Source: a bacterium (GTDB lineage: Bacteria; Patescibacteriota; Minisyncoccia; UBA6257; GWB1-50-10). Taken from it: 64,000 nucleotides of DNA. The DNA lies in NCBI GenBank assembly GCA_027310365.1, contig DAIDAY010000001.1, positions 4,142-68,141 on the forward strand, written 5' to 3'. The position numbers were made by a program, and so were the translations under genes. Below, one piece after another: positions 6,692-26,848 of the stretch (position 1 is its first letter; each line of letters starts with the position of its first letter). The notes under the pieces are model-generated. The model searched no databases, was not told where the DNA came from, and worked only from the letters and a program-made list of their open reading frames with translations.

Positions 6692-8071
6692 ATGCAAAAT
6701 CCAGCTGGCGAAAAATTCATAGTTCAAGGAGGGAAATCGCTTGAGGGGAAAATACGGCTTTCGGGCGCCAAGAATGCGGCGACAAAGATACTGATCGCTT
6801 CGCTCCTCACGGATAAAGAATGTGTTCTGGAGAATTTCCCGGAGATCGGCGACACGAAGATTGTTTTGGAACTGTGCGGGATGCTGGGAAGCGCGATAGA
6901 GACAGGGGATCATACCGTGAAGATTCGGACGAGGGAAATCACCAATACGAAAATTTCCGGACTCTCAAGGCGGAACCGGATACCGATCCTCGCGTTGGGC
7001 CCGCTCTTATCGAGGGTCGGCACGGGCGAAGTGCCGGTTGTGGGGGGGGATAAAATCGGTCCTCGGCCAGTTGATATGCACATTGAGGGCCTGAAAACGC
7101 TGAGCGCCGAAGTGGAAACCGATGGAAATTCGTATAAAGCCGGAGCTCCTCATGGCCTCAAAGGCGCTGAAATAACGCTGAAATATCCTTCCGTCGGGGC
7201 TACGGAGCAGATTGTCATGGCCGCCGTCCTTGCGCGGGGGAAAACGATCCTTCGCAACGCCGCCGTCGAGCCGGAAATCATGGACCTTATCAAGGTTCTT
7301 CAGAAAATGGGGGCTATCATCGAACTGGGAACGAACCGCGTCGTCTCCGTGTACGGCGTCAAAAAGTTGAGAGGCTTTAGGCACAAGATTCTGTCGGATC
7401 GGAACGAAGCGGTTTCCTTCGCATGCCTTGCCGTTGCAACATCGGGAAAAATTTTTGTCGAAGGGGCTTTGCAGGAACATCTGATAACGTTTCTGAACAA
7501 CCTCCGGAGAATCGGCGGTGAATACGATGTTGCCGAAAACGGCATATCGTTTTGGCGGACGAGGAATCTGAACGGTATTAAGATTGAAACCGATACCCAT
7601 CCGGGGTTCATGACCGACTGGCAGCAGCCTTTCACCGTTCTTCTCACGCAAGCGGATGGATCTTCCGTAGTTCATGAGACGGTTTACGAAGACCGCTTCG
7701 AGTACGCGAAAGACTTGAATTTAATGGGTGCGGATATTACAGTAGTGAATGAATGCCTGGGTGATTTACCCTGCCGCTTCAAAGATTCCCCCTGTCCGCA
7801 TAGCGCGATCATCAAAGGGCCGACGAAGCTGAGGGGGAGAGAAATAATGGTTCCGGACATCCGGGCAGGGATTGCTCATCTTCTTGCAGCCATGGTTGCG
7901 GAAGGGGAATCGACCATCAAGGGTATCGACGAGATTGATCGGGGATACGAAAGGATCGATGAAAGATTGAGAAGTTTGGGAGCAGACATAGAGAGGAAAT
8001 TCTCAGCGCCAGATTCTAAGCCCTCAATAAATGCCAATGTTCAAAATCATGAATTCAGAAATACCTTTTAG
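6692..8071 (+). CDS. murA: UDP-N-acetylglucosamine 1-carboxyvinyltransferase
   Basis: KFIVQGGKSLEGKIRLSGAKNAATKILIASLLT and the EPT fold are present throughout. Confidence 0.9.
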   Translation: MQNPAGEKFIVQGGKSLEGKIRLSGAKNAATKILIASLLTDKECVLENFPEIGDTKIVLELCGMLGSAIETGDHTVKIRTREITNTKISGLSRRNRIPILALGPLLSRVGTGEVPVVGGDKIGPRPVDMHIEGLKTLSAEVETDGNSYKAGAPHGLKGAEITLKYPSVGATEQIVMAAVLARGKTILRNAAVEPEIMDLIKVLQKMGAIIELGTNRVVSVYGVKKLRGFRHKILSDRNEAVSFACLAVATSGKIFVEGALQEHLITFLNNLRRIGGEYDVAENGISFWRTRNLNGIKIETDTHPGFMTDWQQPFTVLLTQADGSSVVHETVYEDRFEYAKDLNLMGADITVVNECLGDLPCRFKDSPCPHSAIIKGPTKLRGREIMVPDIRAGIAHLLAAMVAEGESTIKGIDEIDRGYERIDERLRSLGADIERKFSAPDSKPSINANVQNHEFRNTF

Positions 8072-8138: not shown

Positions 8139-9146
8139 ATGTTCACGAAAAAAATAGGCATCGATTTGGGAACCACGAATACGCTGGTTTTTTTGCCCAA
8201 GAAAGGAATTGTCATTAATGAACCGACGGTCGTCGCATTGAGCAAACCAAGCAACGCCGTTCTTGCCGTGGGGGCCGAAGCGAAGGAAATGGTCGGCCGC
8301 ACGCCGGACGACATCGTGACGTACCGCCCGCTGAAAGACGGCGTCATCGCCGAATACTACATAACGGAATCCATGCTCAAATACTTCATCACGAAGAGTG
8401 TTGGAGCATTCAATTTTTGGCGGCCGGACGTGGTGGTTTCGGTCCCGGCGGGCATAACTTCGACTGAATACCGGGCTGTCATCAATGCGGCAAAAGAAGC
8501 CGGCGCAAAGGAAACCTACCCCGTGAAAGAGCCCATTCTCGCGGCTTTGGGCGCGGGCATTCCCATCCACTCGGCGGAAGGCAACATGATCGTGAATATC
8601 GGCGGCGGGACGACCGAGGTCGCCGTGATATCCTTGGGCGGTATCGTGACGTGGCACAGTTTGCGGGTCGCGGGCAACAAGTTCGACCAGTCGATCAGCG
8701 ATTACATCAAGAAAAAGTACAATCTTGCGATCGGCGAGACGAGTTCCGAAAACATCAAAATCAATGTCGGAACGGCACTCCCGACGAGAAATAAAATGGA
8801 GATGAAAATCCGGGGAAGAGATCTCGGTTCCGGACTTCCAAAAGATTTGGTCATCAATTCCAACGAAATCGCCGAGGCAATCAATCAACATCTCCTCGAA
8901 ATCATGAGCGTCGTGCAATCCGTCTTCAACGTGACCCCACCGGAGCTTACGGCCGACATCATGGAAAAGGGCATCATTCTTTCGGGGGGAAGCTCCCAAC
9001 TCCGTGATTTGGAAGAGTTCTTCAAGCGTTCCCTCGGCGTTTCGGCATATACCGCCGAAGACCCAATTCTCTGCGTTGCCAAAGGTACGGCGATGGTTTT
9101 GAGTCACTTGGATGTGTACAAGAGAACATTGTTGAACAAACGATGA
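8139..9146 (+). CDS. mreB: rod shape-determining protein MreB (actin homolog)
   Basis: [36 protein letters not shown] and ILSGGSSQL motifs. Confidence 0.9.
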   Translation: MFTKKIGIDLGTTNTLVFLPKKGIVINEPTVVALSKPSNAVLAVGAEAKEMVGRTPDDIVTYRPLKDGVIAEYYITESMLKYFITKSVGAFNFWRPDVVVSVPAGITSTEYRAVINAAKEAGAKETYPVKEPILAALGAGIPIHSAEGNMIVNIGGGTTEVAVISLGGIVTWHSLRVAGNKFDQSISDYIKKKYNLAIGETSSENIKINVGTALPTRNKMEMKIRGRDLGSGLPKDLVINSNEIAEAINQHLLEIMSVVQSVFNVTPPELTADIMEKGIILSGGSSQLRDLEEFFKRSLGVSAYTAEDPILCVAKGTAMVLSHLDVYKRTLLNKR

Positions 9147-9204
9147 GCAATGGCGAGTGAATAAACAGCGCCTCGTTACTGAGACTGATCACTGATTATT
9201 TTTT

Positions 9205-9984
9205 ATGGGTACACTTTTGGGTTACGACGACAAATGCGAACTCTTTGAAAAACTCATCAAGGAAGACAACTTAGCCCACGCCTATCTCTTTTATGGCGAG
9301 CCGGAAACCGGGAAGCATTCTTTTGCGAAATCGATTGCGTATCTCCTCGAAGATCGGAAAAAAGCGGAAGGAGCACCTCTGATCGATGCGGTGTTTGTCG
9401 CCGCCGAAGAAGGTAAAACGCTCGGTATCGAGGATGTCGCGAGAATCCAGAAATTTCTCTCTGAGCGCCCGATGGCCTCGAAGAAACGGATGGTTGTCGT
9501 CGACAATGCCGAGTCGCTGACCCGCGAAGCGCAGGGAGCGCTCCTCAAGATCGTGGAAGAACCGCCGAAAACCTCGCTTATTATATTCGTTTCTTCGGAT
9601 TCAAGGAATATCTTTGAAGCGCTTTTATCGCGCATCGAGAAGATATACTTTCCGACGTTTTCCGAGAAAGAAATCGCGAGCGGCTTGGTGAAACAATTAA
9701 AAATCGAAGAAACGAAAGCGGCGAAAATAGCGAAGATGTCTTTCGGACGTTTCGGCCGGGCCGTCAAAATCGCGCGCGGAAAGAAAGAAAGTGGCGAGGA
9801 AGACGACGTTTTGAAAACGATCAATGATGCGATCCTCGCGCGCTACGAAGCTGGCATCGCGAAGAACACCAGGGTGCTGCGATGGCTTCTCGAGCGGCAG
9901 ATGTTCATCAAGAGATATAAACGGTATAATTTAAACATGAAATTACAAAAGAAAGTCGTCGATGCGGTATTAAAAAGCAAATAA
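9205..9984 (+). CDS. holB: DNA polymerase III delta-prime subunit-like AAA+ protein
   Basis: HAYLFYGEPETGKHSFAKSIAYLL (a degenerate Walker A) and VVDNAESLTREAQGALLKIVEEPP are typical of delta prime. Confidence 0.65.
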   Translation: MGTLLGYDDKCELFEKLIKEDNLAHAYLFYGEPETGKHSFAKSIAYLLEDRKKAEGAPLIDAVFVAAEEGKTLGIEDVARIQKFLSERPMASKKRMVVVDNAESLTREAQGALLKIVEEPPKTSLIIFVSSDSRNIFEALLSRIEKIYFPTFSEKEIASGLVKQLKIEETKAAKIAKMSFGRFGRAVKIARGKKESGEEDDVLKTINDAILARYEAGIAKNTRVLRWLLERQMFIKRYKRYNLNMKLQKKVVDAVLKSK

Positions 9985-9990
9985 AGAAAA

Positions 9991-10539
9991 ATGGTACAAA
10001 CTGAAGATATAAAACGGGAAGGAGAAGCGGTTCTCCAGAACCTCAAAAAAGCTTTGTCGGGAGTCAGGACATCGCGTCCCCAAACGGCGCTCGTTGAAGA
10101 CATCAGGGTGGAATACTACGGCCAAACGATGCCGATAAAACAACTCGGCACCGTGGGCGTGCGGCCCCCTCGGGAAATTGACATACAAGTATGGGACCAA
10201 AACGCCGTTCCCGTGATAGCAAAAGCCATAGAATCTTCTTCACTGAAGCTCTCGGCGAATATTTCCGGCAACTCGATTAAGATCAACCTTCCGGAATTGA
10301 GCCAGGAACGGCGGGAAGAGCTCGTGAAGTATGTCAAAAAAATAACCGAAGAACACAAGATCGAAATCAGGCACTTGCGGGACGAGATCAACAAGAAAGT
10401 GCAAACCTCTTTTGATGAGGGGGAGGTCAGCGAAGACCAGAAGTTCAAACTGAAGGAGGGCATTCAAAAGGAGATCGACAAGATCAACGGGGAGGTGGAG
10501 AATCTTCTCGGAGCGAAGATTAAGGAAATAGAAGAATAG
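9991..10539 (+). CDS. frr: ribosome recycling factor
   Basis: LSGVRTSRPQTALVEDIRVEYYGQTMPIKQLGTV...VWDQN matches RRF. Confidence 0.9.
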   Translation: MVQTEDIKREGEAVLQNLKKALSGVRTSRPQTALVEDIRVEYYGQTMPIKQLGTVGVRPPREIDIQVWDQNAVPVIAKAIESSSLKLSANISGNSIKINLPELSQERREELVKYVKKITEEHKIEIRHLRDEINKKVQTSFDEGEVSEDQKFKLKEGIQKEIDKINGEVENLLGAKIKEIEE

Positions 10540-10852
10540 GAAGAGCCCCCAATACTCCCTCTCTCGTAGGCTTCCATTCGCTAAAATCACCCTCGCTCAT
10601 CGTCATCCGCAACGGAAAATGCGGAACTTAACCTCGGTTTCATGAATGAAATCATCGGGATTCAAACAGTCCTAGTTTTCCTGCTCCTTCCTCTACCACA
10701 ACAGACTCGCTGTTTCGCAAGATTCGGCGAGTTTTCCTTTATGAAGAGAACCTCTTTCGTGATTCTCTACGCACAGCTGATTTTCAATTTTCTCCAGTAC
10801 GGTGAGTTTGGTTTATTTTTCTAATCTCATGAGAGGGGTTATAATTTATTAG

Positions 10853-11902
10853 ATGGATATTGTGCTGGTGATTTTGGGATTGGCGATTTTGATCCTGAGC
10901 CATGAGTTCGGGCATTTTTCGGTCGCCAAAATGCTCAAGATAAAAGTGGAAGAATTCGGCATCGGGTTCCCGCCCCGGCTTTTCGGCAAGAAAGCGAAAA
11001 GCGAAACGATATACAGTGTAAACGCCTTGCCTTTCGGAGGGTTTGTAAAGCTCTACGGCGAAGGCGAAGAAAAAGCGAGCGATTCCGAGGCATTCCTCAA
11101 CAAGAAATTTTGGCAGAAATCCGTCGTCGTTTTGGCCGGCATCGTAATAAACCTTCTCCTTGGGTGGATCTTCTTGAGCATTGTTTTCACCCTCGGAACT
11201 CCCGAGCATCTTATGATTTCGAGCGTTTCTCCCGGATCGCCGGCAGCTCAAGCAGGGGTGAAGGAAGGGGATATCGTCCAAAAACTTACCATCGACAATG
11301 TGACACTCTCCGATCCAATCGTCGATTCCGATTTCGTTTCGGCCATCAAGAATTCAGCAGATCGATCTCTTCAAGTGACGCTTTTGCGGGGAAACAAGAG
11401 CATCGCCGTGAATTTGGAAAAGCGTTTGAATCCGCCGTCCGGCCAGGGGACGATCGGCGTCGGTCTGACTAATATCGGCGCGGCGCCCAAGTCCATCCCG
11501 AAAAGTCTGAGCGATGCGGCCGTCGCGACGGCTGAGTTTTCCTGGCTTATTCTGGGCGGCTTGTGGTCGCTCATAACGGGGATTTTCGCGAATCCGAACA
11601 TCATCAAAAATGTGGCGGGGCCCGTGGGAATCATCTCCCTGGCTTCGCAGGCGACATCCCTTGGACTGGCTTATCTTCTCCAGCTTCTCGCCTTGATATC
11701 CGTGAATCTCGCCGTCTTAAACCTGATACCGTTTCCGGCGCTTGACGGCGGCCGGTTCCTGGTTTTTTTGATCGAAAAGATCAAGGGCAGAAAAATTTCC
11801 ACCCGCATCCAACTCATCATAAACGGTACCGGTTTCGCTCTCTTGATACTCCTCATGATTTTTGTCACCGTTAATGATGTAAGGAATTTATTTGTCAACT
11901 GA
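10853..11902 (+). CDS. rseP: RIP zinc metalloprotease RseP (site-2 protease)
   Basis: HEFGHF zinc motif, one PDZ domain, and a C-terminal NLIPFPALDGG motif. Confidence 0.85.
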   Translation: MDIVLVILGLAILILSHEFGHFSVAKMLKIKVEEFGIGFPPRLFGKKAKSETIYSVNALPFGGFVKLYGEGEEKASDSEAFLNKKFWQKSVVVLAGIVINLLLGWIFLSIVFTLGTPEHLMISSVSPGSPAAQAGVKEGDIVQKLTIDNVTLSDPIVDSDFVSAIKNSADRSLQVTLLRGNKSIAVNLEKRLNPPSGQGTIGVGLTNIGAAPKSIPKSLSDAAVATAEFSWLILGGLWSLITGIFANPNIIKNVAGPVGIISLASQATSLGLAYLLQLLALISVNLAVLNLIPFPALDGGRFLVFLIEKIKGRKISTRIQLIINGTGFALLILLMIFVTVNDVRNLFVN

Positions 11903-12905
11903 GACGATTATGGCAAAGAAAAAGATAGCGATTTTAGTCGGAGGGCCGTCTCACGAGCATGATGTTTCTTTGAAGACGGGGAAAAACGTTTTCAAACATT
12001 TGCCACGGGAAAAATACGACGCGGTAGAGGTTTTGATCAGCAAGGAAGGCAAGTGGCCGATTTCAATAGAAGAGTTGAAGGATTCCTATGACGCCGCTTT
12101 CATAGCGATGCACGGCGCATACGGTGAAGACGGCACTATCCAAGCGATCCTTGAAGAGCTCGGGATGCCCTATACCGGTTCCAGCGCGAGCGTGAGCGCG
12201 CTCGGCATGAATAAATTCCTCTCGGTTAAAATGTTCAAAGCGGCCGGCCTCGATGTTCCGCCATCATTGTATTTTAGCAAATCCCATTGGATGAAAGATA
12301 AAAACGGCGTTTTGGATGCCATTATGAAGCATCTGGAAAAGCCGTGGATTTTGAAACCGAATGCTTCCGGATCAAGCGTCGGGATAAAAATCGTGGATAC
12401 CAAAACGGAGCTTTTGACGTCTCTTGACTTCCTCTTCCAGGAATTTAAAGATGTCGTCGTCCAGAAATTCATTGCGGGGAAGGAAGTAACCTGCGGTGTT
12501 CTGGATTACGGCGATGCCTCGACCGCGTTCGCACTTTTGCCGACGGAAATCATCCCGGTCAAGAGGAAATTCTTCGATTACACGGCAAAGTACGACGCTG
12601 AATCGCATATCGAAATAACTCCGGCGAAAATTCCCGCACCATTCACAAAAGAAGTGAGACGGATCGCTCTCGTAGTCCACAAGCTCATGGGATGCCGACA
12701 CTTTTCGCGGACGGATATGATCATCGGCAAGGACAAGAAAATTTATGTTTTGGAAGTTAACACGATTCCGGGCCTCACGGAAACGAGCCTGGTTCCCCAG
12801 GAGGCGGAAGCCTACGGCATTCCGTTCTCGAAATTCCTCGATATGATCATAGAATCAACGTTGAAGCAGGAAGGAAGGAAAAAATCTTCCAAAAGGAATC
12901 TCTAG
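11892..12905 (+). CDS. ddl: D-alanine--D-alanine ligase
   Basis: KIAILVGGPSHEHDVSL N-terminus and an ATP-grasp fold. The C-terminus carries LEVNTIPG. Confidence 0.9.
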   Translation: MSTETIMAKKKIAILVGGPSHEHDVSLKTGKNVFKHLPREKYDAVEVLISKEGKWPISIEELKDSYDAAFIAMHGAYGEDGTIQAILEELGMPYTGSSASVSALGMNKFLSVKMFKAAGLDVPPSLYFSKSHWMKDKNGVLDAIMKHLEKPWILKPNASGSSVGIKIVDTKTELLTSLDFLFQEFKDVVVQKFIAGKEVTCGVLDYGDASTAFALLPTEIIPVKRKFFDYTAKYDAESHIEITPAKIPAPFTKEVRRIALVVHKLMGCRHFSRTDMIIGKDKKIYVLEVNTIPGLTETSLVPQEAEAYGIPFSKFLDMIIESTLKQEGRKKSSKRNL

Positions 12906-12945
12906 ATCTTCGCTCTCCACGCACATTGTCCATCCGTAAAAGGCG

Positions 12946-12991
12946 AAAGCAGTTCGATCAATTCGAACCGCTTTTCACGGTCACTTTTTTT
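12946..12991 (+). terminator. weak hairpin plus T-run downstream of ddl
   Basis: A 12 bp stem with one mismatch (AAAGCAGTTCGA / TCGAACCGCTTT). The T7 run begins about 10 nt after the stem, so this is not a canonical terminator. Confidence 0.3.
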
Positions 12992-13207
12992 CACCGCCAC
13001 ACTTCGCGATATACAACACCTTTACCCCCTCCAGATATTTTTTAAATGAATTCCAAAAACGAAAAGGCAAAGAAGGAAAAGAATAAGCGGAGTGGTAACG
13101 ATGTATCTCCTCCACCCCGTTCTTTCAATACCTGAAAACGATAAGAAATCCCTCCCCCTTCGTCGTGTAGACGACGATGTTTGCTTCCGCCGAAACGAAA
13201 GGGGGAT

Positions 13208-13278
13208 GAACGGATGACATTTCGAATCTCGTGTTCCGCTCCGGGAAACTCCCATGCTTGAGGGCGGAGAGCTTCACG
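13208..13278. repeat. intergenic ~70 nt repeat, copy 1 (ddl-proS gap)
   Basis: Near-identical to 16815..16886. The shared core is GAACGGATGRCATYYCGAATCTCGTRTTCCGCTYCCGGGAARCTCCCRTGYTTGAGGGCGGAGAGCTTCACG. Confidence 0.8.
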
Positions 13279-13309
13279 CTCTCTGGCATTTTGCTAAAGG
13301 ATAACTTCT

Positions 13310-14581
13310 TTGCTAATATCAATGGCAATGAAGCAGTCGGAAATTCTCTTTAAAACACAGAAAACGCCCCCGAAAGATGAGGTTGCGGTGAACGCCCAGC
13401 TCCTGATTAAGGCGAATTTCGTGGATAAACTCATGGCGGGCGTTTATTCATATCTGCCTCTGGGTTTCCGTGTGCGGGAGAAGATAGAAAAAATCATCAG
13501 GAAAGAAATGAACGCACTCGGTGCGGCGGAGATTTTAATGCCGTCGCTCCAACCTAAAGCGATTTGGGATGCGACGGGACGGTGGGAAGGATTAAAGAAA
13601 ATCATGTACCAGTTCGAGGACCATGCAGGCCACGACGTGGGTCTTGCGGTCACGCACGAAGAAGTCGTGGCGAACCTCGCTCAGGGGCTTATCGATTCGT
13701 ACGTTGATTTGCCGAAATCCGTCTACCAAATCCAGGCGAAATTCAGGGATGAACCGCGGGCGAAATCGGGTGTCATCCGAGGGCGGGAATTTACGATGAA
13801 AGATATGTATAGCTTCCACACGGACGAGAAATCGCTCGATGAATTCTACGAAGAGAGCAAAAAAGCATATATCAAGGTTTTTGAACGGTGCGAACTGAAG
13901 GCATACGTGACGGAAGCTTCGGGGGGAGATTTCTCCAAAAGCTTTTCCCACGAGTTCATGGTAGAGACGTCCGCCGGCGAGGATGAAACGTATCTCTGCC
14001 GGCTCTGCGGTTTCGCGCGGAATAAGGAAATCGCCGATTTCAAGAAGGGCGAACGGTGCCCCGGATGCGGAGCAGGTGTTTTGGAAAAAGTAAAAACGGT
14101 GGAGGTGGGGAACATTTTCAAGCTCGGAACCAAGTATTCCGAAGGCGCGAATTTGAATTTCAAAGACGAGAAGGGAAATCTGAGGCCGGTTGTGATGGGC
14201 TCTTACGGCATCGGCATTGATCGCCTGATGGGGACGGCGGTGGAGGTGCACCACGATGACAAAGGAATTGTTTGGCCCCCTGAGATAGCGCCGTTCCAGG
14301 TCCATCTTTTGACGATCGGCGCGGCGAACGAGGAGCTTCAAAAATTCGCCGAGAGCGTATATCATAAGCTTTGCGAACAGGGGGTGGAAGTGCTCCATGA
14401 CGACCGGGTAAAGATTTCCGCGGGAGAAAAATTCTACGATGCCGATTTGATCGGCATCCCGTGGCGGGTCGTTGTGAGCGATCGGATGATGGTGCAAGAA
14501 AAAGTGGAAGCGAAAAAAAGGAACGAAAAGAACTCGAAAGACATGAAACCCAGCGAATTCTTAAAAGTGCTGAAAAAATGA
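13310..14581 (+). CDS. proS: prolyl-tRNA synthetase (short form without the INS editing domain; CxxC...CxxC insertion)
   Basis: Class II motifs are present, and the C-terminus is an anticodon-binding domain. CRLCGFARNKEIADFKKGERCPGCG sits where the bacterial editing insertion would be. Confidence 0.9.
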   Translation: MLISMAMKQSEILFKTQKTPPKDEVAVNAQLLIKANFVDKLMAGVYSYLPLGFRVREKIEKIIRKEMNALGAAEILMPSLQPKAIWDATGRWEGLKKIMYQFEDHAGHDVGLAVTHEEVVANLAQGLIDSYVDLPKSVYQIQAKFRDEPRAKSGVIRGREFTMKDMYSFHTDEKSLDEFYEESKKAYIKVFERCELKAYVTEASGGDFSKSFSHEFMVETSAGEDETYLCRLCGFARNKEIADFKKGERCPGCGAGVLEKVKTVEVGNIFKLGTKYSEGANLNFKDEKGNLRPVVMGSYGIGIDRLMGTAVEVHHDDKGIVWPPEIAPFQVHLLTIGAANEELQKFAESVYHKLCEQGVEVLHDDRVKISAGEKFYDADLIGIPWRVVVSDRMMVQEKVEAKKRNEKNSKDMKPSEFLKVLKK

Positions 14582-15606
14582 TGCTGAAAAAAATATTAGG
14601 CGTTGATTTAGGAACGGATACGACGCAAGTGTATTTAAAAGGCGTCGGTATCGTTTTAAACGAACCGTCGATTGTCGCATTCAACAACCGGACGCAGCGG
14701 GTGGTTGCCGTCGGCAGGGAAGCGAAGAAAATGCTTTCCCGGACACCCTCTCACGTGACAGCCTTGCGGCCAATCATGAACGGCGTCATCGCCGATTTCG
14801 ACATGGCGAAGGAAATGGTACAGCGGTTTTTGAAGAACAAGACGCTCCCGTGGTCGTGGCTCACTGAGGTTGTCGTAAGCATTTCGACCAATTTGACGGA
14901 AGTTGAACGGAAGTCCGTGGAAGATCTCTTTAGGGAGGTCGGGGTCGGCAAAGTATACATGATTGAGGAGCCCATTGCGGCGGCTTTGGGAAGCGGTCTC
15001 GACATCGGCGCGCCTACCGCGCATCTCGTTGTTGATATTGGCGCCGGGACGACCGATATGGCCATTATTTCCATAAACGGCCTCGTTGTTTCCAAGCGTC
15101 TCAAGATTGCGGGAGATCATTTCAATCAGGAAATCATTCATGGCGTGAAAGACGAAATGAAGCTCTTTATCGGCGAACCGACGGCTGAGGAAATAAAAAT
15201 AGCCGTTGGCGCGGCGGTGCCCCAGACGGAAAAACTTGATATCAGCGTGAGGGGAAGGGATGCCGTTTCCGGCTTGCCGAAGGAAGTCAATGTGCGGGAT
15301 ACGCAGGTGAGGTATTGGCTCTTGAAATCATTGAAAACCATGACGGAAGCTCTGAAGGAACTGATTGACGTCACGCCCCCGGAACTTGTCGGAGACATCT
15401 ACCGGAACGGTGTGTACCTTTCAGGCGGAGGAAGCATGCTCCGTGGCATGCAGCAATTGTTTGAAAAAGAAATCGGCGTTAATGTCCATGGGGTTGATGA
15501 GCCTTTGATATGCGTCGTGCGAGGCATTGGCCTCATCGCCGAAAATACGAGTTTCTACACGAACATCCTGCACAGTTTCTCTTCTTCCTCAATCATCCGC
15601 TTATGA
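14578..15606 (+). CDS. second MreB/Mbl-like actin homolog
   Basis: ILGVDLGTDTTQVY, IVLNEPSIVAF, DIGAGTTDMAIIS and YLSGGGSMLRG motifs. The start ATG at 14578 overlaps the proS stop (ATGA). Confidence 0.8.
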   Translation: MMLKKILGVDLGTDTTQVYLKGVGIVLNEPSIVAFNNRTQRVVAVGREAKKMLSRTPSHVTALRPIMNGVIADFDMAKEMVQRFLKNKTLPWSWLTEVVVSISTNLTEVERKSVEDLFREVGVGKVYMIEEPIAAALGSGLDIGAPTAHLVVDIGAGTTDMAIISINGLVVSKRLKIAGDHFNQEIIHGVKDEMKLFIGEPTAEEIKIAVGAAVPQTEKLDISVRGRDAVSGLPKEVNVRDTQVRYWLLKSLKTMTEALKELIDVTPPELVGDIYRNGVYLSGGGSMLRGMQQLFEKEIGVNVHGVDEPLICVVRGIGLIAENTSFYTNILHSFSSSSIIRL

Positions 15607-16292
15607 ATCCGTTAAAAGCTTCGGTGATCGGAATGATTATTCTGGCAGCGACTGCGGTTGTCTTCTTTTTCGGCAAGGATATCTTTTCTTTTTTTGAGAA
15701 TTTCCGAGCCGCGCTTCTCTCGGGAGGAGGGGGGGAACTGAGCTACCGTCGTTTATTGGATTTCAGGCTGGCGGCAGAGAGCGCTTCTTCAGAACAGAAG
15801 TCTTCGGCGTCGCCGGTTGCTTCCGGCTTCACGACCGTGGAGGCGGAAGTTTTTTCTGATTATCCGTTCAATAATTTTTCGCGGCTTACGATCGCGGCAG
15901 GAAGCGATAAAGGCTTGAAAGCGGGGATGCCGGTTTTCGAAGGAGGAAACATCCTGCTCGGCAAAATCGTTTCCGTTGGATCGCGTACATCGGAGGTTGA
16001 AACCTTTTTCGATCCGTCGTGGAAAAGTTCCGTTTTCATCGGGGGCGAAAAAATCAAGGGTCTGCTCTCCGGCGGATCTTCCCCCTCCGTTGATTTCATA
16101 CCAAAGGGATCGGATGTTTCTTCCGGCATGCAGATAACGAATTCCGACAGCGCTTATCCCATCGACGCGTTTATCGGATCCGTCAATGCCGTGGAAAACG
16201 CGGGAAATAGCCTGTGGTTGCAAGCGACCGTCAAGATACCATTCGATCTCTCGAACGTCAACGACGTATTTGTCGTGACTAATTTCGACTAA
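15603..16292 (+). CDS. mreC: rod shape-determining protein MreC
   Basis: An N-terminal TM helix is followed by the MreC beta-domain (GMPVFEGGNILLGKIVSVGSRTSEVETFFDPS...). The start overlaps the mreB2 stop (ATGA). Confidence 0.75.
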   Translation: MNPLKASVIGMIILAATAVVFFFGKDIFSFFENFRAALLSGGGGELSYRRLLDFRLAAESASSEQKSSASPVASGFTTVEAEVFSDYPFNNFSRLTIAAGSDKGLKAGMPVFEGGNILLGKIVSVGSRTSEVETFFDPSWKSSVFIGGEKIKGLLSGGSSPSVDFIPKGSDVSSGMQITNSDSAYPIDAFIGSVNAVENAGNSLWLQATVKIPFDLSNVNDVFVVTNFD

Positions 16293-16297
16293 CAGCA

Positions 16298-16750
16298 ATG
16301 CATCGGGCGCTTACGCTCATCCTTCTCCTGGCCGTACTGGTGCTGGTATTTACCTCGCGCCTTCTTGCCTTAGGCGGTGTGAACCCAGATCTGCCGCTTA
16401 TATTTTTTGCATGGCTCTTGAGCGCTCCTTCCCTCCGAAGAATGAGGTTCGGAAGTTTCTCCCTGCTTATCCTTTTGTTTCTGGGTTTTATGGCGCTGGT
16501 TTCCACCTTTTGGCTTCCGGAAGCGGCTCTCCTCGGCGCCCTTGTGCTTGCGGCTTTTTATCCCAGTACACTCCTCTCCGGCCATCGGTTGTTCGACTTT
16601 CTGATTATCCAAGTTGTCGTTTCTTTCGTTTTTTATGTCTTGGGAGTCTTCATTTTTCACGGCGCTTTTCCCTGGGTCGACATTTTGTTCGAAGCGGCAT
16701 ACGGCATCCTTCTATCGCTTGCCGCCTATCTTTTCCTTCATGCCCGGTAG
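16298..16750 (+). CDS. mreD: polytopic membrane protein, probable MreD
   Basis: A 150 aa highly hydrophobic protein sits immediately after mreC and before the PBP2 gene. The call rests on position and hydropathy. Confidence 0.5.
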   Translation: MHRALTLILLLAVLVLVFTSRLLALGGVNPDLPLIFFAWLLSAPSLRRMRFGSFSLLILLFLGFMALVSTFWLPEAALLGALVLAAFYPSTLLSGHRLFDFLIIQVVVSFVFYVLGVFIFHGAFPWVDILFEAAYGILLSLAAYLFLHAR

Positions 16751-16814
16751 AATAAACTTCGGATGCGTTTGTGCCACCCCCGCCTGTTCATCCCCGCCGC
16801 CGTGCGGCAGGAAT

Positions 16815-16886
16815 GAACGGATGGCATCCCGAATCTCGTATTCCGCTTCCGGGAAGCTCCCGTGTTTGAGGGCGGAGAGCTTCACG
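16815..16886. repeat. intergenic ~70 nt repeat, copy 2 (mreD-pbp2 gap)
   Basis: See the copy at 13208..13278. Both copies are in the same orientation in non-coding gaps. Confidence 0.8.
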
Positions 16887-16987
16887 AGATGACTTTGATA
16901 CGCGGATAAAAAGAGTTTTAATAAATTCAATGAAGAAACAAAAGGTCAACTTGAAGCGATTCCTCATCCGAGGTCGTACTCCGGGGC

Positions 16988-18838
16988 ATGAAAGATGATT
17001 TGCACTTGAGCGATGTCTTGACCGATAAGTACGTTGAAGAGGATTTCATGGAAGTCCCTTTGGCCGACCAGGCATTCAGGTATTTTCTTCTCGTTGTCGG
17101 CGTCGTTTTTTTGGTTATTGCGGTGCGTTTATTTTACCTCGGCGTTATTCAACACAATTTTTATTCGAATAAAGCTTTGGCGAACGTGAGCGATTTGAAC
17201 GTCGAAGCGGCTCCGCGAGGGATTATCAATGACCGATTCGGAAGCCCCTTGACGGAAAACGTCCCCTTATTCAATGTCTTTGCGACGCCGATTGATCTTC
17301 CGAAGGATGCCGGCAATCGGGAGAATGTTTTGAAAACAGCGAGCGGGATTTTGGGCATTTCCTCTCCCGGCACGACCGGCACGAACCCCAACGACAAGAT
17401 ACTCCTCAAGAGCGGCATCAGTCAGGAAGAGCTGATCAGCATCGCTTCCCAGAATCTTCCGGGGATTGCCATCCTCCCATCGTTCAAGATGATCGATACG
17501 ACGCCCTTGAAATTTTCCCATGTGATCGGTTATTCCTCGCTTGCAACGGCGGATGACATCAAAGCCGACCCGGCATTGACGCCAAATGACACCAAGGGAC
17601 GGACGGGGCTGGAAAGCTTCTACGACAAGTACTTGAGGGGGATTGACGGAGAAAAAAGATATCTCACGAATGCTGCGGGACAGGTGCTGGGGGAAAACGT
17701 CGTCCGGCGGGCCGAGCAGGGGGATACAATCAATACGTTTCTCGATGCGGAATTCCAAAATTATTTTTACGACAGGCTACAGAATACCTTGAATGGCCTC
17801 GGCAGGAATATCGGCGCCGCGATCGCCATGAATCCCCAGAACGGAGAAATTTTAGCACTCTTCAGCATACCTTCATTCGATCCAGGGAATATCGCCGCGG
17901 CTTTGAATGCCCCGTATGAGCCACTTTTCAACCGGGCGGTTTCCGGCCTCTATAGCCCCGGTTCAACCATCAAGCCGCTCGTCGCGGCGGCGGCGCTTAC
18001 CGAAAGCATTTTGGATCCCAGCCGCCAGATTTTTTCCCCGGGATACATCTATGTCCCGAATCCCTACGATCCGACTCGCCCCTCGAAATTTTTGGATTGG
18101 CAGTATCAGGGATGGGTCGACATGTATTCGGCACTCGCAAAATCGAGCGACGTTTACTTCTACGCGGTCGGGGGCGGCTACGGCAATCAAAAGGGTTTGG
18201 GGATCGCGAAGCTCAAAGAATGGTGGCAAAAATTCCTGCTCGACAAAGAAACTGGCATCGACGTCGCGGGCGAGCAAAGCGGTTTCCTCCCCGATCCTGC
18301 GTGGAAAGAAAGGATAAAGCGTTCCATTTGGCGGATCGGCGACACGTACAATGTTTCCATCGGTCAGGGCGATTTGGTGATAACGCCGATCGAACTTTTG
18401 AATTATATCAGCGCCGTTGCGAACGGCGGCAAGCTCTATAAACCGCGCATTGTCGACCGTATCGTTGATTCCGAAGGCCAAACGGTCTTGAAAACAAGTC
18501 CGGAAGTCTTGAGCGATTTAAGCGGTGAAATAGGAAAGTACCTTCCACTCGTGCAAAAGGGAATGGAGGATGCCGTCTCCCAAAGTTACGGGACGGCCTA
18601 CACGCTCCGCGATTTGCCGGTCCAAGTCGCCGCGAAAACCGGTTCTGCGCAGGTATCGAACAACCAAAAAACGAACGCGTTCTTCGTCGGCTACGCGCCG
18701 GCGAAAAATCCTCAGATCGCCGTCGCTATCCTCGTGGAAAACGCCAAGGAAGGAAGTTTGAACGTCGTGCCGGTGGCGCGGGACATATTTCTATGGTACT
18801 ATGAACATCGTCTCAGAAGTCAAAATAATCAAAAATGA
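16988..18838 (+). CDS. mrdA: penicillin-binding protein 2 (class B transpeptidase)
   Basis: An N-terminal TM helix, then the STIKP (SxxK), SSDVYF (SxN-like) and KTGSAQ (KTG) motifs. Confidence 0.85.
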   Translation: MKDDLHLSDVLTDKYVEEDFMEVPLADQAFRYFLLVVGVVFLVIAVRLFYLGVIQHNFYSNKALANVSDLNVEAAPRGIINDRFGSPLTENVPLFNVFATPIDLPKDAGNRENVLKTASGILGISSPGTTGTNPNDKILLKSGISQEELISIASQNLPGIAILPSFKMIDTTPLKFSHVIGYSSLATADDIKADPALTPNDTKGRTGLESFYDKYLRGIDGEKRYLTNAAGQVLGENVVRRAEQGDTINTFLDAEFQNYFYDRLQNTLNGLGRNIGAAIAMNPQNGEILALFSIPSFDPGNIAAALNAPYEPLFNRAVSGLYSPGSTIKPLVAAAALTESILDPSRQIFSPGYIYVPNPYDPTRPSKFLDWQYQGWVDMYSALAKSSDVYFYAVGGGYGNQKGLGIAKLKEWWQKFLLDKETGIDVAGEQSGFLPDPAWKERIKRSIWRIGDTYNVSIGQGDLVITPIELLNYISAVANGGKLYKPRIVDRIVDSEGQTVLKTSPEVLSDLSGEIGKYLPLVQKGMEDAVSQSYGTAYTLRDLPVQVAAKTGSAQVSNNQKTNAFFVGYAPAKNPQIAVAILVENAKEGSLNVVPVARDIFLWYYEHRLRSQNNQK

Positions 18839-19296
18839 GCGATAATTACTTAACTCAGGAGCGGTACGACGAGTTGAAGGTCGAACTAAACAGCTTGAAA
18901 ACCGCTGGCCGGCAGTCGGTTGGCGAGCGCTTGCGCCACGCCAAAGAACTGGGCGACTTGTCGGAAAACGCCGAGTATCAGGCAGTCAGAGAGGAACAAA
19001 ATCTTTTAGAAAAGAAAATAGCTGATTTAGAAGATTTATTGGAGAATTCGTCGATCATCAACAAGGAAAGCGGCGGGGCGACCGTGAAAATTGGTTCCAA
19101 CGTTACGATCAAAAAAAGCGGCGGCGAAGCCGTGACCTACACGGTCGTGGGATCGAGCGAAACCGATCCGGCGAAGGGCTTGATTTCCAACGCCTCGCCT
19201 CTTGGCAAGCAGCTCCTCGGTAAAAAAATGGGAGACGTGATCGTCATAGAGGCGCCGAAGGGAAAAAACGAGTACGCTATCCTGAAGATAAACTAA
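18835..19296 (+). CDS. greA: transcription elongation factor GreA
   Basis: A coiled-coil N-terminus (ELGDLSENAEYQAVREEQ) is followed by the FKBP-like C-terminus. Confidence 0.9.
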   Translation: MSDNYLTQERYDELKVELNSLKTAGRQSVGERLRHAKELGDLSENAEYQAVREEQNLLEKKIADLEDLLENSSIINKESGGATVKIGSNVTIKKSGGEAVTYTVVGSSETDPAKGLISNASPLGKQLLGKKMGDVIVIEAPKGKNEYAILKIN

Positions 19297-19332
19297 GGGC
19301 TTGGTACGAACGTCAAGCCTTATCCCACCCCT

Positions 19333-19446
19333 ATGATGCCAACAAATTGATGAATGACATCAAACCAGTCGCTATGAACGCCCTCTTTGGATTAAGTGGA
19401 GGCAGTGGTCGTATAAGTGCGGAATGCTCGTTGTTGTAGCTCACTA
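19333..19446 (+). promoter_or_regulatory. conserved ~115 nt 5' leader element upstream of lysS (copy 1)
   Basis: About 75% identical to 20955..21072 upstream of serS. Shared blocks are ATGATGCCAACAAA, CATCAAA, AAGTGGAGG and GTCGTAT. An imperfect hairpin follows at 19426..19470. Confidence 0.6.
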
Positions 19447-19487
19447 TTCTACGCTACAAACGAGCTTGAATATCGAAACAAAACGGC

Positions 19488-20933
19488 ATGCTCGAGGACA
19501 TCAAAGGAGAAAGGAAACGAAAACTCGACAAATGGGAAGAATTCGCGGAAGGGTATCCGGCCCGCGTGAAGCGGTCCATCACGCTCGGCGAAGCACAGAA
19601 GCGCTTTACGGCGCTCGCGAAATCCAAGAAGAACATGAGCGTCGTGGGGCGCGTTTTTGGTTTGCGCGATCAGGGAGGAATCATCTTTGCCGACGTGCGA
19701 GATATTTCCGGCGCGCTCCAGATCGTTCTCGTGAAAAAGGAAATGGCCGATTTCGGGCGGCTGAAAACCTCGCTCGACATGGGCGATTTCCTTTCGGCGA
19801 CTGGCCATTTCTTCATAACGAAGAAGGGCGAGCGGAGTTTTTTGGCAAAAAAGGCATTGATTATTTCAAAGAGCCTGCGGCCCATTCCGCAGGAATGGTA
19901 CGGCCTCGGCGACATTGAAACAAGATTGAGAAAACGGTATTTGGATTCTCTGGTGAATTCCGCCGTGAGGGATATTTTCGTGAAAAAAAGTCGCTTCTGG
20001 AGGACGGTGAGAGATTTTTTGATCGACGAAGGGTTTTTGGAAGTTGAGAATCCGGTTTTGGAGGCGGTTCCGGGAGGCGCCGAAGCTGAACCATTCACGA
20101 CTCACCACAATGCGCTCAACGAAGATTTCTATTTGAGAATTTCTTTGGAGTTGCCCCTGAAAAAGATGCTCGTCGGTGGATTCGAAAAAATTTTCGAAAT
20201 CGGCCGCATCTTCAGGAACGAAGGAATCGACCGCGAGCACTTGCAGGATTACACGCAGATGGAGTGCTACTGGGCATACGCCGATTACCACGACATGATG
20301 AAGCTCGTGGAGAAGCTTTATAAAAAGCTGGCGAAAGCCGTTATCGGTTCTTTGAAATCGAAAAAGGGAAAGGAAACCATCGATTGGGGCGGAAAATGGA
20401 AGAAAGTCGGATATTTCGACCTCTTCAAGAAATACGCCGGCGTGAATCTTTCGAACGTTTCCACCGAGGATTTGAGGCGAAAGGCGAAAGAATTGAAACT
20501 CGATCTTGATCCAGGCGACAGCAAAGGGAGACTGATTGATCTTATTTACAAGAAAACCGTACGCCCTCATTTGATTCAGCCCTGCTTCCTCGTGAACCCA
20601 CCGGTTGAAATAGAACCGCTCGCGAAGCGCGTTCCCGGTCGTCCGGAGATGGTCGAACGGTTCCAAATCATGGCAGGGGGGACGGAACTGGGAAAGGGAT
20701 TTTCCGAATTGAATGACCCCGTCGATCAAAGGAAAAGATTTGAGGAACAAGTGGCGCTCCGGGAGGGCGGCGACAAAGAAGCGCAAATGATGAATGAAGA
20801 TTTCGTCGAGGCGCTCGAATACGGCATGCCTCCGGCGGCGGGGTTCGGGATGTCCGAGCGGGTTTTCGCAATCATGGTGGATATGGCTATAAGAGAAACC
20901 GTCTACTTTCCGCTCATGAGGAAGGAAAAATAA
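19488..20933 (+). CDS. lysS: lysyl-tRNA synthetase, class II
   Basis: An OB-fold N-terminus plus class II motifs (FLEVENPVLEAVPGGAEAEPFTTHHNAL, FRNEGID...QMECYWAY, GGTELGKGFSE). Confidence 0.9.
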   Translation: MLEDIKGERKRKLDKWEEFAEGYPARVKRSITLGEAQKRFTALAKSKKNMSVVGRVFGLRDQGGIIFADVRDISGALQIVLVKKEMADFGRLKTSLDMGDFLSATGHFFITKKGERSFLAKKALIISKSLRPIPQEWYGLGDIETRLRKRYLDSLVNSAVRDIFVKKSRFWRTVRDFLIDEGFLEVENPVLEAVPGGAEAEPFTTHHNALNEDFYLRISLELPLKKMLVGGFEKIFEIGRIFRNEGIDREHLQDYTQMECYWAYADYHDMMKLVEKLYKKLAKAVIGSLKSKKGKETIDWGGKWKKVGYFDLFKKYAGVNLSNVSTEDLRRKAKELKLDLDPGDSKGRLIDLIYKKTVRPHLIQPCFLVNPPVEIEPLAKRVPGRPEMVERFQIMAGGTELGKGFSELNDPVDQRKRFEEQVALREGGDKEAQMMNEDFVEALEYGMPPAAGFGMSERVFAIMVDMAIRETVYFPLMRKEK

Positions 20934-20954
20934 GAGGTTGATGCGAAATCTCAA

Positions 20955-21072
20955 ATGATGCCAACAAACTTATGAGCAACATCAAAGAAGTCACCATGAG
21001 CACCATACTTGTATGAAGTGGAGGTATGTAGTCGTATGATAAGTACGGGATGCTCAATGTTACGGCTAAATT
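20955..21072 (+). promoter_or_regulatory. conserved ~115 nt 5' leader element upstream of serS (copy 2)
   Basis: See copy 1. A T7 run at 21070..21076 follows this element. Confidence 0.6.
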
Positions 21073-21115
21073 TTTTTCGCCATGACATGAGCTCAAGAAT
21101 TTAGACACCATTGAC

Positions 21116-22387
21116 ATGCTTGATATCAATCTCATCAGGACGAATTCCGATAAAGTCAAAGAAGGCGTCCAGAGAAAGAAAATTGATCCGAAGCTCGTCG
21201 ACAAGTTTCTGCGGTTGGACGATGAGTGGAGGATAAAAACCAAAGCGATCGACGAGCTTCTGGCCGAGCAGAACGCGGTGAGTCGCGAGATGAGCAAGAA
21301 CCAAAGCCAGGATCTCTTGAGTAAGGCACAGCTTCTGAAACAACGCATCGGCGACATCGAAGCTGAACGGGATTCCCTTTCTGTTAAACGGGACGATCTT
21401 TTGAATAAGCTGCCCAACCTGCCTTTCGACAACGTACCGGTCGGCAAGGACGAGACGGAAAATAAAGTCCTGAAGAAAGTCGGCGAGAAGAACAATTTCA
21501 AGTTCAAGCCGCAGGATTACCTGACGCTCGGTGAAAAACTGAAAATCATCAACGTGAAAAAAGCGACGGAAATCGCCGGTTCGCGGTTCGGGTACATCAT
21601 GGGAGATGCAGCCCTTTTGGAATTCGCCTTGGTGCAATTGGCCTTCGACATACTCGGCAAAGAAGGATTCCTGCCGGTTGTACCGCCGGTCATGATCACG
21701 CCCGAGGTATACAAAGAAATGGGGCGGTTAGCCGCCGAACAGAAGGAAGACAAATACTTCCTGCCGAAAGACGAGTTGTACCTCGTAGGAAGCGCCGAAC
21801 ATACCGTGGGACCCTTGGGCCGTGGCGAAGTTTTTGAAGAATCATCGCTCCCGCGGCGGTACGCTGGCTTCTCGACGTGTTTTCGAAGAGAAGCGGGTTC
21901 CTACGGGAAAGACACCAAAGGAATTCTGAGGGTCCACCAGTTCGATAAAGTGGAAATGTATTCCTTCGCGAAGCCAGAAGATTCCGAGAAAGAGCATCGG
22001 TTCCTTCTCGGCATGCAGGAGAAGCTCGTCAGCGCTTTGAAATTGCCGTACCGCATCGTGGAAATATGCACCGGCGACATGGGATGGACCGATGCGCGGC
22101 AATTCGACGTCGAGACGTGGCTGCCGGGCCAAGGCGAAAACGGGGAATACCGCGAAACGCACTCCTGTTCCAACACGACTGATTTCCAGACGAGAGGAAT
22201 CAACGCAAAGTACGAGACCAAAGAAGGAAAGAAAGAGTTCTTGCACGCTTTGAATGCCACGGCCTTCGCGATCGGAAGAATGCTCATCGCCATTATCGAA
22301 AACTACCAGACGGAGAAGGGTGAAATCGAGGTTCCGGAAGCCCTGCGGGATTACCTCGGTAAAAACGTCATCAAGAAGCGTTTATAA
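21116..22387 (+). CDS. serS: seryl-tRNA synthetase
   Basis: The N-terminal coiled-coil arm and class II core ([13 protein letters not shown]..., [26 protein letters not shown]) are present. Confidence 0.9.
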   Translation: [423 protein letters not shown]

Positions 22388-25207: not shown

Positions 25208-25394
25208 ATGAATCCCCGAGCGATGAGGAAGGAATAAACAATGTCGCCTGTCTGAATCCCGAGTCTGCCTCAAAATTCAGTAGGTACTGAATTTTGAGGC
25301 AACGAGGTTGAGTTCGATATTTCGTGGCTTTATTCCAACGAAGAGGGAGGGGGATTCATATGAATGAAAATTCTCCTGATGAAGGGGAAGGTGG
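25208..25394. repeat. ~190 nt intergenic repeat element, copy 1 (contains hairpin 25267..25300)
   Basis: About 85% identical to the reverse complement of 42897..43053. It includes a near-perfect 16 bp inverted repeat (GCCTCAAAATTCAGTA gg TACTGAATTTTGAGGC). Confidence 0.8.
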
Positions 25395-26261: not shown

Positions 26262-26326
26262 TTTATTTTTTGAATTTCGAGTAAATGACTGAGTTCATAA
26301 ATTCTTAAATTCAATCAAAATTCGAA

Positions 26327-26830
26327 ATGCTGTCATTCAAAATTATGGAGGAAAACATAAAAAAAGGAGAACAAACGCAGGAGGTGAGCAACGTCGAGGA
26401 AATAAAAAAGGAGCGGGACGAGTATTTAGATGGTTGGAAACGTGCGAAGGCGGATCTCATCAACTACAAGAAGGAAGAGATGCACCGCCTGGAATCATTC
26501 ACCAAGTTCTCGAACGAAGCCATAATGCTCGAAATGCTCCAAGTCCTCGACAGTTTTGATCTGGGACTCTCGATCATCAAGGAAGACGATCCGGCAAGGA
26601 AAGGAGTCATTCTCATCCAGAGCCAGATGAAAGACATCATGAAACGGCACGGACTGGAACGGATCGAGGTGAAGAAAGGTGATCAATTGGACACAAATCT
26701 CCATGAAGCGATAGAAGAAGTCAATTCCGATGCCCCTCCGGGGACGGTAAGCGAGGAAGTGACGGCCGGCTATAAGCTTCACGGAAAAACAATACGGCCG
26801 GCAAGAGTAAAAGTGTCGAAGAAACAATGA
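26327..26830 (+). CDS. grpE: nucleotide exchange factor GrpE
   Basis: DGWKRAKADLINYKKEEMH...MLEMLQVLDSFD matches GrpE. Confidence 0.9.
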   Translation: MLSFKIMEENIKKGEQTQEVSNVEEIKKERDEYLDGWKRAKADLINYKKEEMHRLESFTKFSNEAIMLEMLQVLDSFDLGLSIIKEDDPARKGVILIQSQMKDIMKRHGLERIEVKKGDQLDTNLHEAIEEVNSDAPPGTVSEEVTAGYKLHGKTIRPARVKVSKKQ

Positions 26831-26848
26831 CAAACAATAAACAAAACC

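Follow-up and report, generated by a model that had tools for sequence, protein, structure and literature searches.

Introduction

The genes studied here have their closest described counterparts in four systems. The single MreB of Escherichia coli has an amphipathic helix at its N-terminus, and pbp2 shares an operon with rodA, apart from mreBCD. A Bacillus subtilis cell makes several isoforms (MreB, Mbl and MreBH), which co-localise and are in part redundant; the mreB gene is grouped with mreC and mreD. Spiroplasma combines a small genome with multiple paralogs (MreB1-5), some with non-canonical catalytic residues; it has no cell wall, and its MreBs serve in swimming. The MreBs of the Candidate Phyla Radiation (CPR) form two clades, single genomes hold both, and different roles have been suggested for the two types (Takahashi et al. 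2020, bioRxiv 10.1101/2020.05.13.095042). MreB has been reported in 75-95% of groundwater Patescibacteria metagenome-assembled genomes (MAGs). Here we analyzed a 64,000-nt stretch of a Patescibacteriota genome (GenBank assembly GCA_027310365.1, contig DAIDAY010000001.1, positions 4,142 to 68,141; "the window"), which carries two MreB genes, mreB1 and mreB2, in one cell-wall gene cluster.

The order mreB-mreC-mreD (the last gene probable) and an overlapping mreC/mreD or mreB/mreC junction are shared by the window and E. coli mreBCD, and the window pbp2, like mrdAB, encodes a class B penicillin-binding protein (PBP) with SxxK, SxD and KTG motifs. Unlike E. coli, the window has two MreBs, both lacking the helix; proS leads the operon; and pbp2 lies between mreD and greA with no rodA nearby. 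The B. subtilis isoforms likewise have no N-terminal amphipathic helix, and B. subtilis uses a hydrophobic membrane loop. The CPR pair (35-45% identity) is far more diverged than the B. subtilis isoforms, and the tree of Takahashi et al. points to an independent origin. Spiroplasma and the window share a pattern that suggests a division between hydrolysing and non-hydrolysing isoforms; in contrast to Spiroplasma, the window paralogs lie among the peptidoglycan genes murA, ddl, mreC and pbp2. Like the single Parcubacteria and Woesebacteria genomes of Takahashi et al., the window probably holds one MreB of each type, its two proteins falling into two separate clades with 100% bootstrap support. 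The available portion of that preprint reports the tree, and not the proS-mreB2-mreCD-pbp2 linkage, the rate difference, or the Asn and Glu-to-Gln changes described below.

On our evidence, which comes from comparison of sequences, the locus is probably a class-wide, vertically inherited cluster with two ancient and intact MreB paralogs, in which MreB2 would form the elongasome filament and MreB1 would be a partner with altered nucleotide handling.

Both copies belong to the MreB family

MreB1 and MreB2 are 37% identical over their full length. MreB1 scored above the curated cutoffs of two MreB models (NF010539, 437 bits, cutoff 293; TIGR00904, 412 bits, cutoff 366). MreB2 scored above the cutoff of NF010539 (375 bits) and below that of TIGR00904 (337 bits). 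The MreBH model NF010540 (cutoff 515) was reached by neither copy (MreB1, 364 bits; MreB2, 328 bits). The best PDB sequence match of MreB1 was Geobacillus MreB (E = 1e-101), and those of MreB2 were MreB chains (E = 3e-79), with other families no better than 3e-10. For the two copies, non-MreB families in the PDB (DnaK, MamK) reached at best ~1e-10 to 1e-12, and matches to Spiroplasma MreB3 and MreB5 were weaker than those to conventional MreBs. When an AlphaFold2 (AF2) model of MreB2 with a mean confidence (pLDDT) of only 64 was used for a fold search, the top 25 matches were all MreB or Mbl (E 1e-33 to 1e-27; TM-score 0.72-0.80), followed after an 11-order E-value gap by MamK (2e-16), DnaK and BeeR. 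By family scores and PDB matches both copies are MreB, and copy 2 is so by fold search as well. Clustering of copy 2 with FtsA- or ParM-like actins, which the initial annotation had raised, was tested and was negative by sequence and by fold.

The cluster is conserved across Paceibacteria

MreB2 homologs numbered more than 6,700 at E < 1e-20, the nearest taxon-named ones being Patescibacteria (Paceibacterota, Jorgensenbacteria). A scan of one genome per species for MreB2-specific motifs found them in at least 575 genomes. Synteny was compared at the species level in the best 80 MreB2 loci, in which the window proteins were placed by tblastn. All 80 were labelled Patescibacteria or uncultured bacterium, except for one Spirochaetia-labelled MAG; they cover Jorgensen-, Wolfe-, Colwell-, Lipton-, Harrison-, Brenner- and Magasanikbacteria.

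proS lay immediately 5' of mreB2 in 65 of the 69 loci that could be tested, and mreC immediately 3' of it in 66 of 77. pbp2 was found within 5 kb in 59/67 loci and was followed by greA in 31/60. An MreB1-type gene was present up to 10 kb upstream of mreB2 in 39 of 51 loci. The order common to the relatives is (murA)-mreB1-holB-frr-rseP-(ddl)-proS-mreB2-mreC-mreD-pbp2-greA-lysS-serS. These counts indicate that duplicated MreB together with mreC-(mreD)-pbp2 is the norm of the class and not an oddity of one genome. The initial annotation was accurate in its coordinates and in recognising two MreB genes, both intact and bona fide, in one cell-wall cluster. It had also called the arrangement unusual for a small genome; this does not hold for Paceibacteria, and two co-occurring CPR MreB clades were published in 2020. 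The tight linkage of mreB2 to proS that it described is conserved, with a median spacer of 5.5 nt.

Gene identities in the window were assigned by Pfam and NCBIfam profile scans. The cluster comprises the following features, all genes being on the + strand:

murA, UDP-GlcNAc 1-carboxyvinyltransferase: 6692-8071, + strand (PF00275, 247 bits; TIGR01072, 488 bits, cutoff 393)
mreB1: 8139-9146, + strand (PF06723, 426 bits; NF010539 and TIGR00904 as above)
holB, DNA polymerase III delta': 9205-9984, + strand (PF13177; TIGR00678 was the best match but under its cutoff)
frr, ribosome recycling factor: 9991-10539, + strand (PF01765, 153 bits)
frr/rseP spacer, 313 nt: 10540-10852
rseP, site-2 M50 metalloprotease with a PDZ domain: 10853-11902, + strand (PF02163, 193 bits; TIGR00054, 247 bits, cutoff 148)
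ddl, D-Ala-D-Ala ligase: 11910-12905, + strand (PF07478, PF01820; NF002378, 295 bits, cutoff 243)
ddl/proS spacer, 416 nt: 12906-13321
proS: 13322-14581, + strand (TIGR00409, 442 bits, cutoff 307)
mreB2: 14578-15606, + strand (PF06723, 374 bits; NF010539 as above)
mreC: 15603-16292, + strand (PF04085, 84 bits, cutoff 28)
probable divergent mreD, a hydrophobic polytopic membrane open reading frame (ORF) of 150 aa, so named mainly for its conserved position: 16298-16750, + strand
mreD/pbp2 spacer, 237 nt: 16751-16987
pbp2, class B PBP (MrdA-like transpeptidase): 16988-18838, + strand (PF00905, PF03717)
greA: 18835-19296, + strand (PF01272, PF03449)
lysS: 19488-20933, + strand (Pfam; downstream extension of the cluster, order kept in closer relatives)
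serS: 21116-22387, + strand (Pfam; downstream extension of the cluster, order kept in closer relatives)

mreB1 follows murA, as the initial annotation had it, at a distance of 67 nt; murA has the same upstream placement in a subset of relatives. holB, which comes after mreB1 in relatives too, and ddl are both part of the cluster and had been left out. The prolyl-tRNA synthetase (ProRS) encoded by proS is bacterial-type and 419 aa long against the 568 positions of the TIGR00409 model, which it matched in two stretches; the two-stretch match and the short length indicate that the INS editing domain is absent.

The gene neighbourhoods bear on the chief alternative to a cooperating pair, in which MreB2 alone runs the elongasome and MreB1, as a filament that is stable and turns over slowly, serves another actin-like role; candidates are the organisation of cytoplasmic Mur enzymes, a function in type IV pili, at the chromosome or at the cell pole, and host attachment. 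MreB1 never adjoins mreCD or pbp2 and MreB2 almost always does, as separate jobs would predict. However, MreB1 is often beside murA, a wall-precursor gene, and its neighbourhood holds no conserved gene for an alternative partner.

The two copies evolve at different rates

Across one shared set of 42 genomes, mean pairwise identity was 74.8% for MreB1 and 58.2% for MreB2, and MreB1 was the more conserved in 861 of 861 genome pairs. Identity to the MreBs of E. coli, Caulobacter, Thermotoga and Geobacillus was 44-49% for MreB1 and 40-42% for MreB2; within a genome, the two copies were 35-45% identical. MreB2, which had been described as the more divergent copy, is thus also the faster-evolving one, by about two-fold. 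In a neighbor-joining (NJ) tree of sequences sampled by similarity to MreB1, with no outgroup and no B. subtilis Mbl or MreBH, the MreB1 clade and the MreB2 clade each had 100/100 bootstrap support, and the two were never sisters. The far stronger conservation of MreB1, which suggests different and tighter constraints, and the non-sister position of the clades are both in keeping with separate jobs, as is the suggestion of Takahashi et al. that the two CPR types differ in role.

With only 37% identity between the copies, it might be supposed that one was horizontally acquired or is decaying and that the pair is a recent accident. Yet both clades are syntenic across many Paceibacteria candidate phyla, each is monophyletic, and the GC content and third-position GC (GC3) of mreB1 and mreB2 are like those of neighbouring genes. 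Both genes are intact in the 42 related genomes that hold the two, with no frameshift or internal stop in any ortholog, so the question whether one copy is a pseudogene, left by the initial annotation, is answered in the negative. Synteny, composition and intact ORFs led us to discard recent horizontal transfer or pseudogenization; such an accident is extremely improbable.

The non-canonical nucleotide site belongs to MreB1

At the position of the phosphate-2 Asp (D165 in E. coli, D158 in B. subtilis), MreB1 had Asn in 43 of 43 sequences and MreB2 had Asp in 76 of 80. In the window, MreB1 carries Asn153 (codon AAT, 8595-8597), whereas the MreB2 codon is GAT; the B. subtilis isoforms all keep the Asp. 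The position of E. coli D192 was Asn in 41/43 MreB1 (Asn180 in the window) and Asp in 62/80 MreB2. The adenosine motif was GGS instead of GGG in 28/43 MreB1, and GGG in 77/80 MreB2. MreB1 keeps the phosphate-1 Asp, the catalytic Glu (43/43) and the catalytic Thr (43/43); the catalytic Thr of MreB2 was present in 72/80. These two residues correspond to Glu140 and Thr167 of Caulobacter MreB, the catalytic pair that positions the attacking water.

The window MreB2 has D10, E131, D153, T158 and GGG283-285 when numbered from the start at 14578 (D9, E130, D152, T157 and GGG282-284 from 14581). The full set of phosphate-binding and adenosine motifs ascribed to copy 2 was therefore confirmed: phosphate-1, catalytic Glu/Thr, phosphate-2 and GGG are all kept. 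The non-canonical residue is that of copy 1 (Asn153), not copy 2; MreB2 has the canonical nucleotide-site set, and MreB1 departs from it at phosphate-2. Because MreB1 is still an MreB by every hidden Markov model (HMM), this points to a variant active site and not to exclusion from the family. Unexpectedly, it is the slower-evolving copy that carries the odd active site.

In the 150 cluster representatives (50% identity) closest to MreB1, the residue at the D165 position was Asp 127 times and Asn 16 times. The Asn-bearing representatives lie around the MreB1 clade, and one of their clusters is named Patescibacteria. In E. coli MreB, D165A, D165E and D165V are non-functional. The D158A mutant of B. 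subtilis MreB releases much less Pi and binds nucleotide less tightly, and still polymerises.

MreB2 varies at another catalytic position. Of 120 close homologs (Jorgensenbacteria-like; L009-L043, P0005-P0120), 105 have Gln in place of its catalytic Glu (E140 in Caulobacter), and Arg or Lys also occurs there; the immediate group of the window and relatives further away retain Glu. Neither MreB has the full canonical Glu/Asp/Thr set in 22 of the 42 two-copy genomes. A speculative extension, which we hold unlikely, is that the Paceibacteria Rod system is an obligate MreB pair with split or relaxed nucleotide chemistry, in which many organisms would lack a fully canonical MreB and grow their wall with little or no ATP hydrolysis. 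MreB1 would then be a low-turnover Asn isoform, and MreB2, whose Glu is Gln in Jorgensenbacteria-like relatives, would hydrolyse ATP here.

Filament interfaces and membrane loops

For the protofilament interfaces, two residues were compared, V121 and S284, which serve as interface probes in E. coli MreB. The inter-protofilament position (V121) was Thr in 42/43 MreB1 and Val in 80/80 MreB2. The intra-protofilament position (S284) was Ala in 43/43 MreB1 and Gly in 80/80 MreB2, both small residues.

An E. coli-type N-terminal amphipathic helix or N-terminal extension was found in neither copy. Both have an aromatic or hydrophobic loop where the MreBs of Thermotoga, Caulobacter and Geobacillus insert into the membrane: F-N-(I/L/V/F)-(F/W/I) in MreB1 and LPWSW(F/L/Y) in MreB2. 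LPWSW is a hallmark of the MreB2 subclade of the window and is not class-wide. The loop sequences of both copies are compatible with membrane binding.

These residues cut both ways for a separate role of MreB1. The invariant Asn at the phosphate-2 Asp and the Thr at the inter-protofilament Val agree with it; the retained membrane-loop hydrophobics, catalytic Glu/Thr and small intra-protofilament residue do not. Taken with the neighbourhood and rate data, separate jobs for the two copies are possible, though we think them doubtful.

The copies might instead be redundant isoforms whose sequence differences are neutral drift. Both exceed the NF010539 threshold and have full-length MreB architecture, and partial redundancy of MreB isoforms is established in B. 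subtilis. However, streamlined genomes rarely retain redundant genes, yet both copies are intact in 42 of 42 two-copy genomes; and the clade-specific N153, Thr at V121 and LPWSW loop, together with the rate difference, point to distinct constraints. We consider redundancy improbable.

MreC, MreD, PBP2 and the search for RodA and RodZ

The predicted MreC has a barrel core and one N-terminal transmembrane helix (residues 6-24). It scored well above the PF04085 cutoff and reached only 45 bits against the NCBIfam equivalog TIGR00219 (cutoff 93). The slot between mreC and pbp2 was occupied by a hydrophobic ORF of 136-172 aa in 53 of 54 loci. No Pfam match was obtained for the window ORF or for any of 54 orthologs. 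TIGR03426 was the sole family matched by more than one of the 54. A solved MreD (9dvb_D) aligned over nearly the full length with a weak E = 1.9. An hhalign comparison with E. coli MreD gave a probability of 0.5%, and the P-N/D motif was nonetheless aligned. A homolog search found only 4 relatives, and an AF2 model (pLDDT 53) was too poor for a fold search. The ORF is a probable divergent MreD, mainly by its conserved position.

Over 587 aa, the PBP2 shared 28% identity with its E. coli counterpart (E = 1e-55); it has the motifs STIK326, SSD386 and KTG550, a transmembrane helix at residues 33-51, and both class B domains. Its best NCBIfam match was TIGR03423, at 441 bits, 14 under the cutoff of 455. 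Pfam scans of 46 window ORFs, with ~25 smaller ORFs left out, found no FtsW/RodA or RodZ domain. RodA lay within 10 kb in just 1 of the 80 related loci. The initial annotation had called the MreCD-PBP2 elongation system complete, which these results do not support: the MreD is no more than probable, and the window yielded neither RodA nor RodZ. Further envelope genes of the window, downstream of the cluster, are:

mltG/yceG: 33696-34661
sugar transferase, two glycosyltransferases of family GT4 and a 703-aa DUF4012 protein: with mltG/yceG, within 33696-40864; none of these is RodA or FtsW

Gene junctions and start codons

ATGA overlaps are present in the sequence at 14578-14581 (proS/mreB2), 15603-15606 (mreB2/mreC) and 18835-18838 (pbp2/greA). 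The initial annotation had described the whole proS-mreB2-mreC-mreD-pbp2-greA string as joined by 4-nt overlaps. This is so for three of its five junctions, but mreC and mreD are separated by a 5-nt gap and mreD and pbp2 by the 237-nt spacer. In relatives, the proS/mreB2 spacer had a median of 5.5 nt, with the exact 4-nt overlap at 9 of 70 loci; for mreB2/mreC the median was 12 nt, and the overlap occurred at 13 of 68 loci.

Public gene calls on identical Logan contigs start mreB2 at 14581 and mreC at 15633. The MreB2 product from 14581 is on record for two of these contigs (SRR5161795, SRR5161805), and an exact look-up of the product from 14578 matched no record. In the closest relatives, the mreC ATG overlaps the mreB2 stop and the homologous N-terminus reads M-x-x-F/V-K-x-S/L-V-L-G, a pattern that the window MreC N-terminus MNPLKASVIG fits. 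The MreB2 family consensus exceeds the 14581 product by one residue. The ortholog MreC N-termini and the MreB2 consensus length give better support to starts at 15603 and 14578 than to the public calls. As judged from these alignments, the public calls begin mreC 30 nt late and probably begin mreB2 one codon late. The ATGA overlaps at proS/mreB2 and mreB2/mreC are in agreement with the ortholog N-termini.

Spacers and repeats

In relatives, frr adjoins rseP (median 3 nt) and mreD adjoins pbp2 within a few nucleotides. The three large spacers of the window (frr/rseP, ddl/proS and mreD/pbp2) are lineage-specific and contain repeats. A 77-nt direct repeat occurs at 13203-13278 in the ddl/proS spacer and at 16810-16886 in the mreD/pbp2 spacer (88% identical); both copies are upstream of operon-leading genes, and the repeat is absent from related genomes. 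Within the frr/rseP spacer, 10564-10694 is ~80% identical to opposite-strand intergenic DNA of two related loci (L030, 5676-5805, - strand; L008, 13995-14065, - strand), where the counterparts occupy other slots, ddl/proS and upstream of pbp2. Its distribution suggests a small mobile or repetitive extragenic palindromic (REP)-like element that lands at operon boundaries.

The initial annotation had seen the frr-uppS-cdsA-rseP neighbourhood as reduced here to frr and a 313-nt gap. The genes uppS and cdsA are indeed missing between frr and rseP, but this is lineage-wide, because frr abuts rseP in relatives; the gap is a lineage-specific repeat spacer, and no sign of an uppS or cdsA remnant was found in it.

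The spacers were also considered as structured RNA elements. This idea was dropped in favor of repeats: Rfam gave no match at E <= 1 over 10000-22000, and the folding z-scores of the spacers (-1.1 to +0.6) indicated no significant predicted RNA structure. Terminator-like hairpins occur in the ddl/proS spacer at 13160-13177 and 13265-13285, and the regional hairpin count was not above that of shuffled sequence. Promoter and terminator scans returned counts equal to the shuffled expectation; we therefore claim no transcript boundaries from them.

The lysS and serS leaders (19333-19435 and 20955-21061) share a 107-nt stretch of 76% identity, which includes AAGTGGAGG. It stops ~50-55 nt before each start codon, and a 37-nt piece is present upstream of serS in L010. 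The stretch may be a common aminoacyl-tRNA synthetase leader or regulatory element; it matched nothing in Rfam and had no significant fold. An internally palindromic element of 93 nt occurs twice in inverted orientation (85% complementary), at 25244-25336 and 42922-43014, in large intergenic gaps. Fragments of it are also present in L005 and L008.

Other features of the window

hrcA-grpE-dnaK-dnaJ heat-shock cluster: 25569-30926
352-aa ORF between dnaK and dnaJ, without a Pfam match: 28680-29738; it overlaps the end of dnaK by 29 nt
tRNA-Gly(CCC): 43534-43607; it overlaps the 3' end of the following gene
large serine recombinase gene: 43596-45062, minus strand
three small ORFs after the recombinase gene, to 46198, with a low GC of 0.459; the 170-aa one that was scanned had no Pfam match

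The segment 43534-46198 is probably a small mobile element integrated at a tRNA gene.

Discussion

The reading we prefer, an old and vertically inherited MreB pair, can be put as a mechanism. MreB2 would be an ATP-hydrolysing filament, co-translated with MreC and MreD; it would position PBP2, together with a RodA from elsewhere in the genome, to build the lateral wall. MreB1 would still bind the membrane and polymerise, with altered and probably slower or weaker nucleotide turnover; as a partner isoform it would either co-polymerise with MreB2 or form a separate, more static scaffold. Such a pair would be comparable to MreB/Mbl/MreBH and to the multiple MreBs of Spiroplasma. The linkage to proS would stem from conserved packing of the operon and from translational coupling, the genome being streamlined, and ProRS itself would have no functional link to cell shape.

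Several observations weigh against this reading. Twelve of the 51 loci have no MreB1 within 10 kb upstream of mreB2, and in some of these it is nearby but rearranged (L034, L075). As an NJ tree of similarity-sampled sequences with no outgroup, the phylogeny gives no date for the duplication and leaves room for an ancient transfer. What the natural Asp-to-Asn change does is extrapolated from mutants of other species that carry Ala, Glu or Val at this position. The candidate MreD has no significant HMM match, TIGR03426 hitting 3 of 54 members with a best E = 0.019. tblastn with E. coli queries found neither RodA nor RodZ in the window, so that the RodA partner of PBP2 is assumed. Finally, because the 237-nt spacer parts mreD from pbp2, pbp2-greA may be a separate transcript.

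That CPR bacteria keep two distinct MreB types has been published; what is modestly new here is the detail on residues and synteny. These data add the context in which each type is found: the faster-evolving type is wired into proS-mreB-mreC-mreD-pbp2, and the slower type carries an invariant Asn at a position where mutation is lethal in E. coli. The general picture of MreB is unchanged. The Asn of MreB1 offers a natural experiment on the role of ATP hydrolysis in the MreB polymerisation cycle, and the pair bears on how ultra-small cells with minimal genomes come to invest in a two-component actin cytoskeleton.

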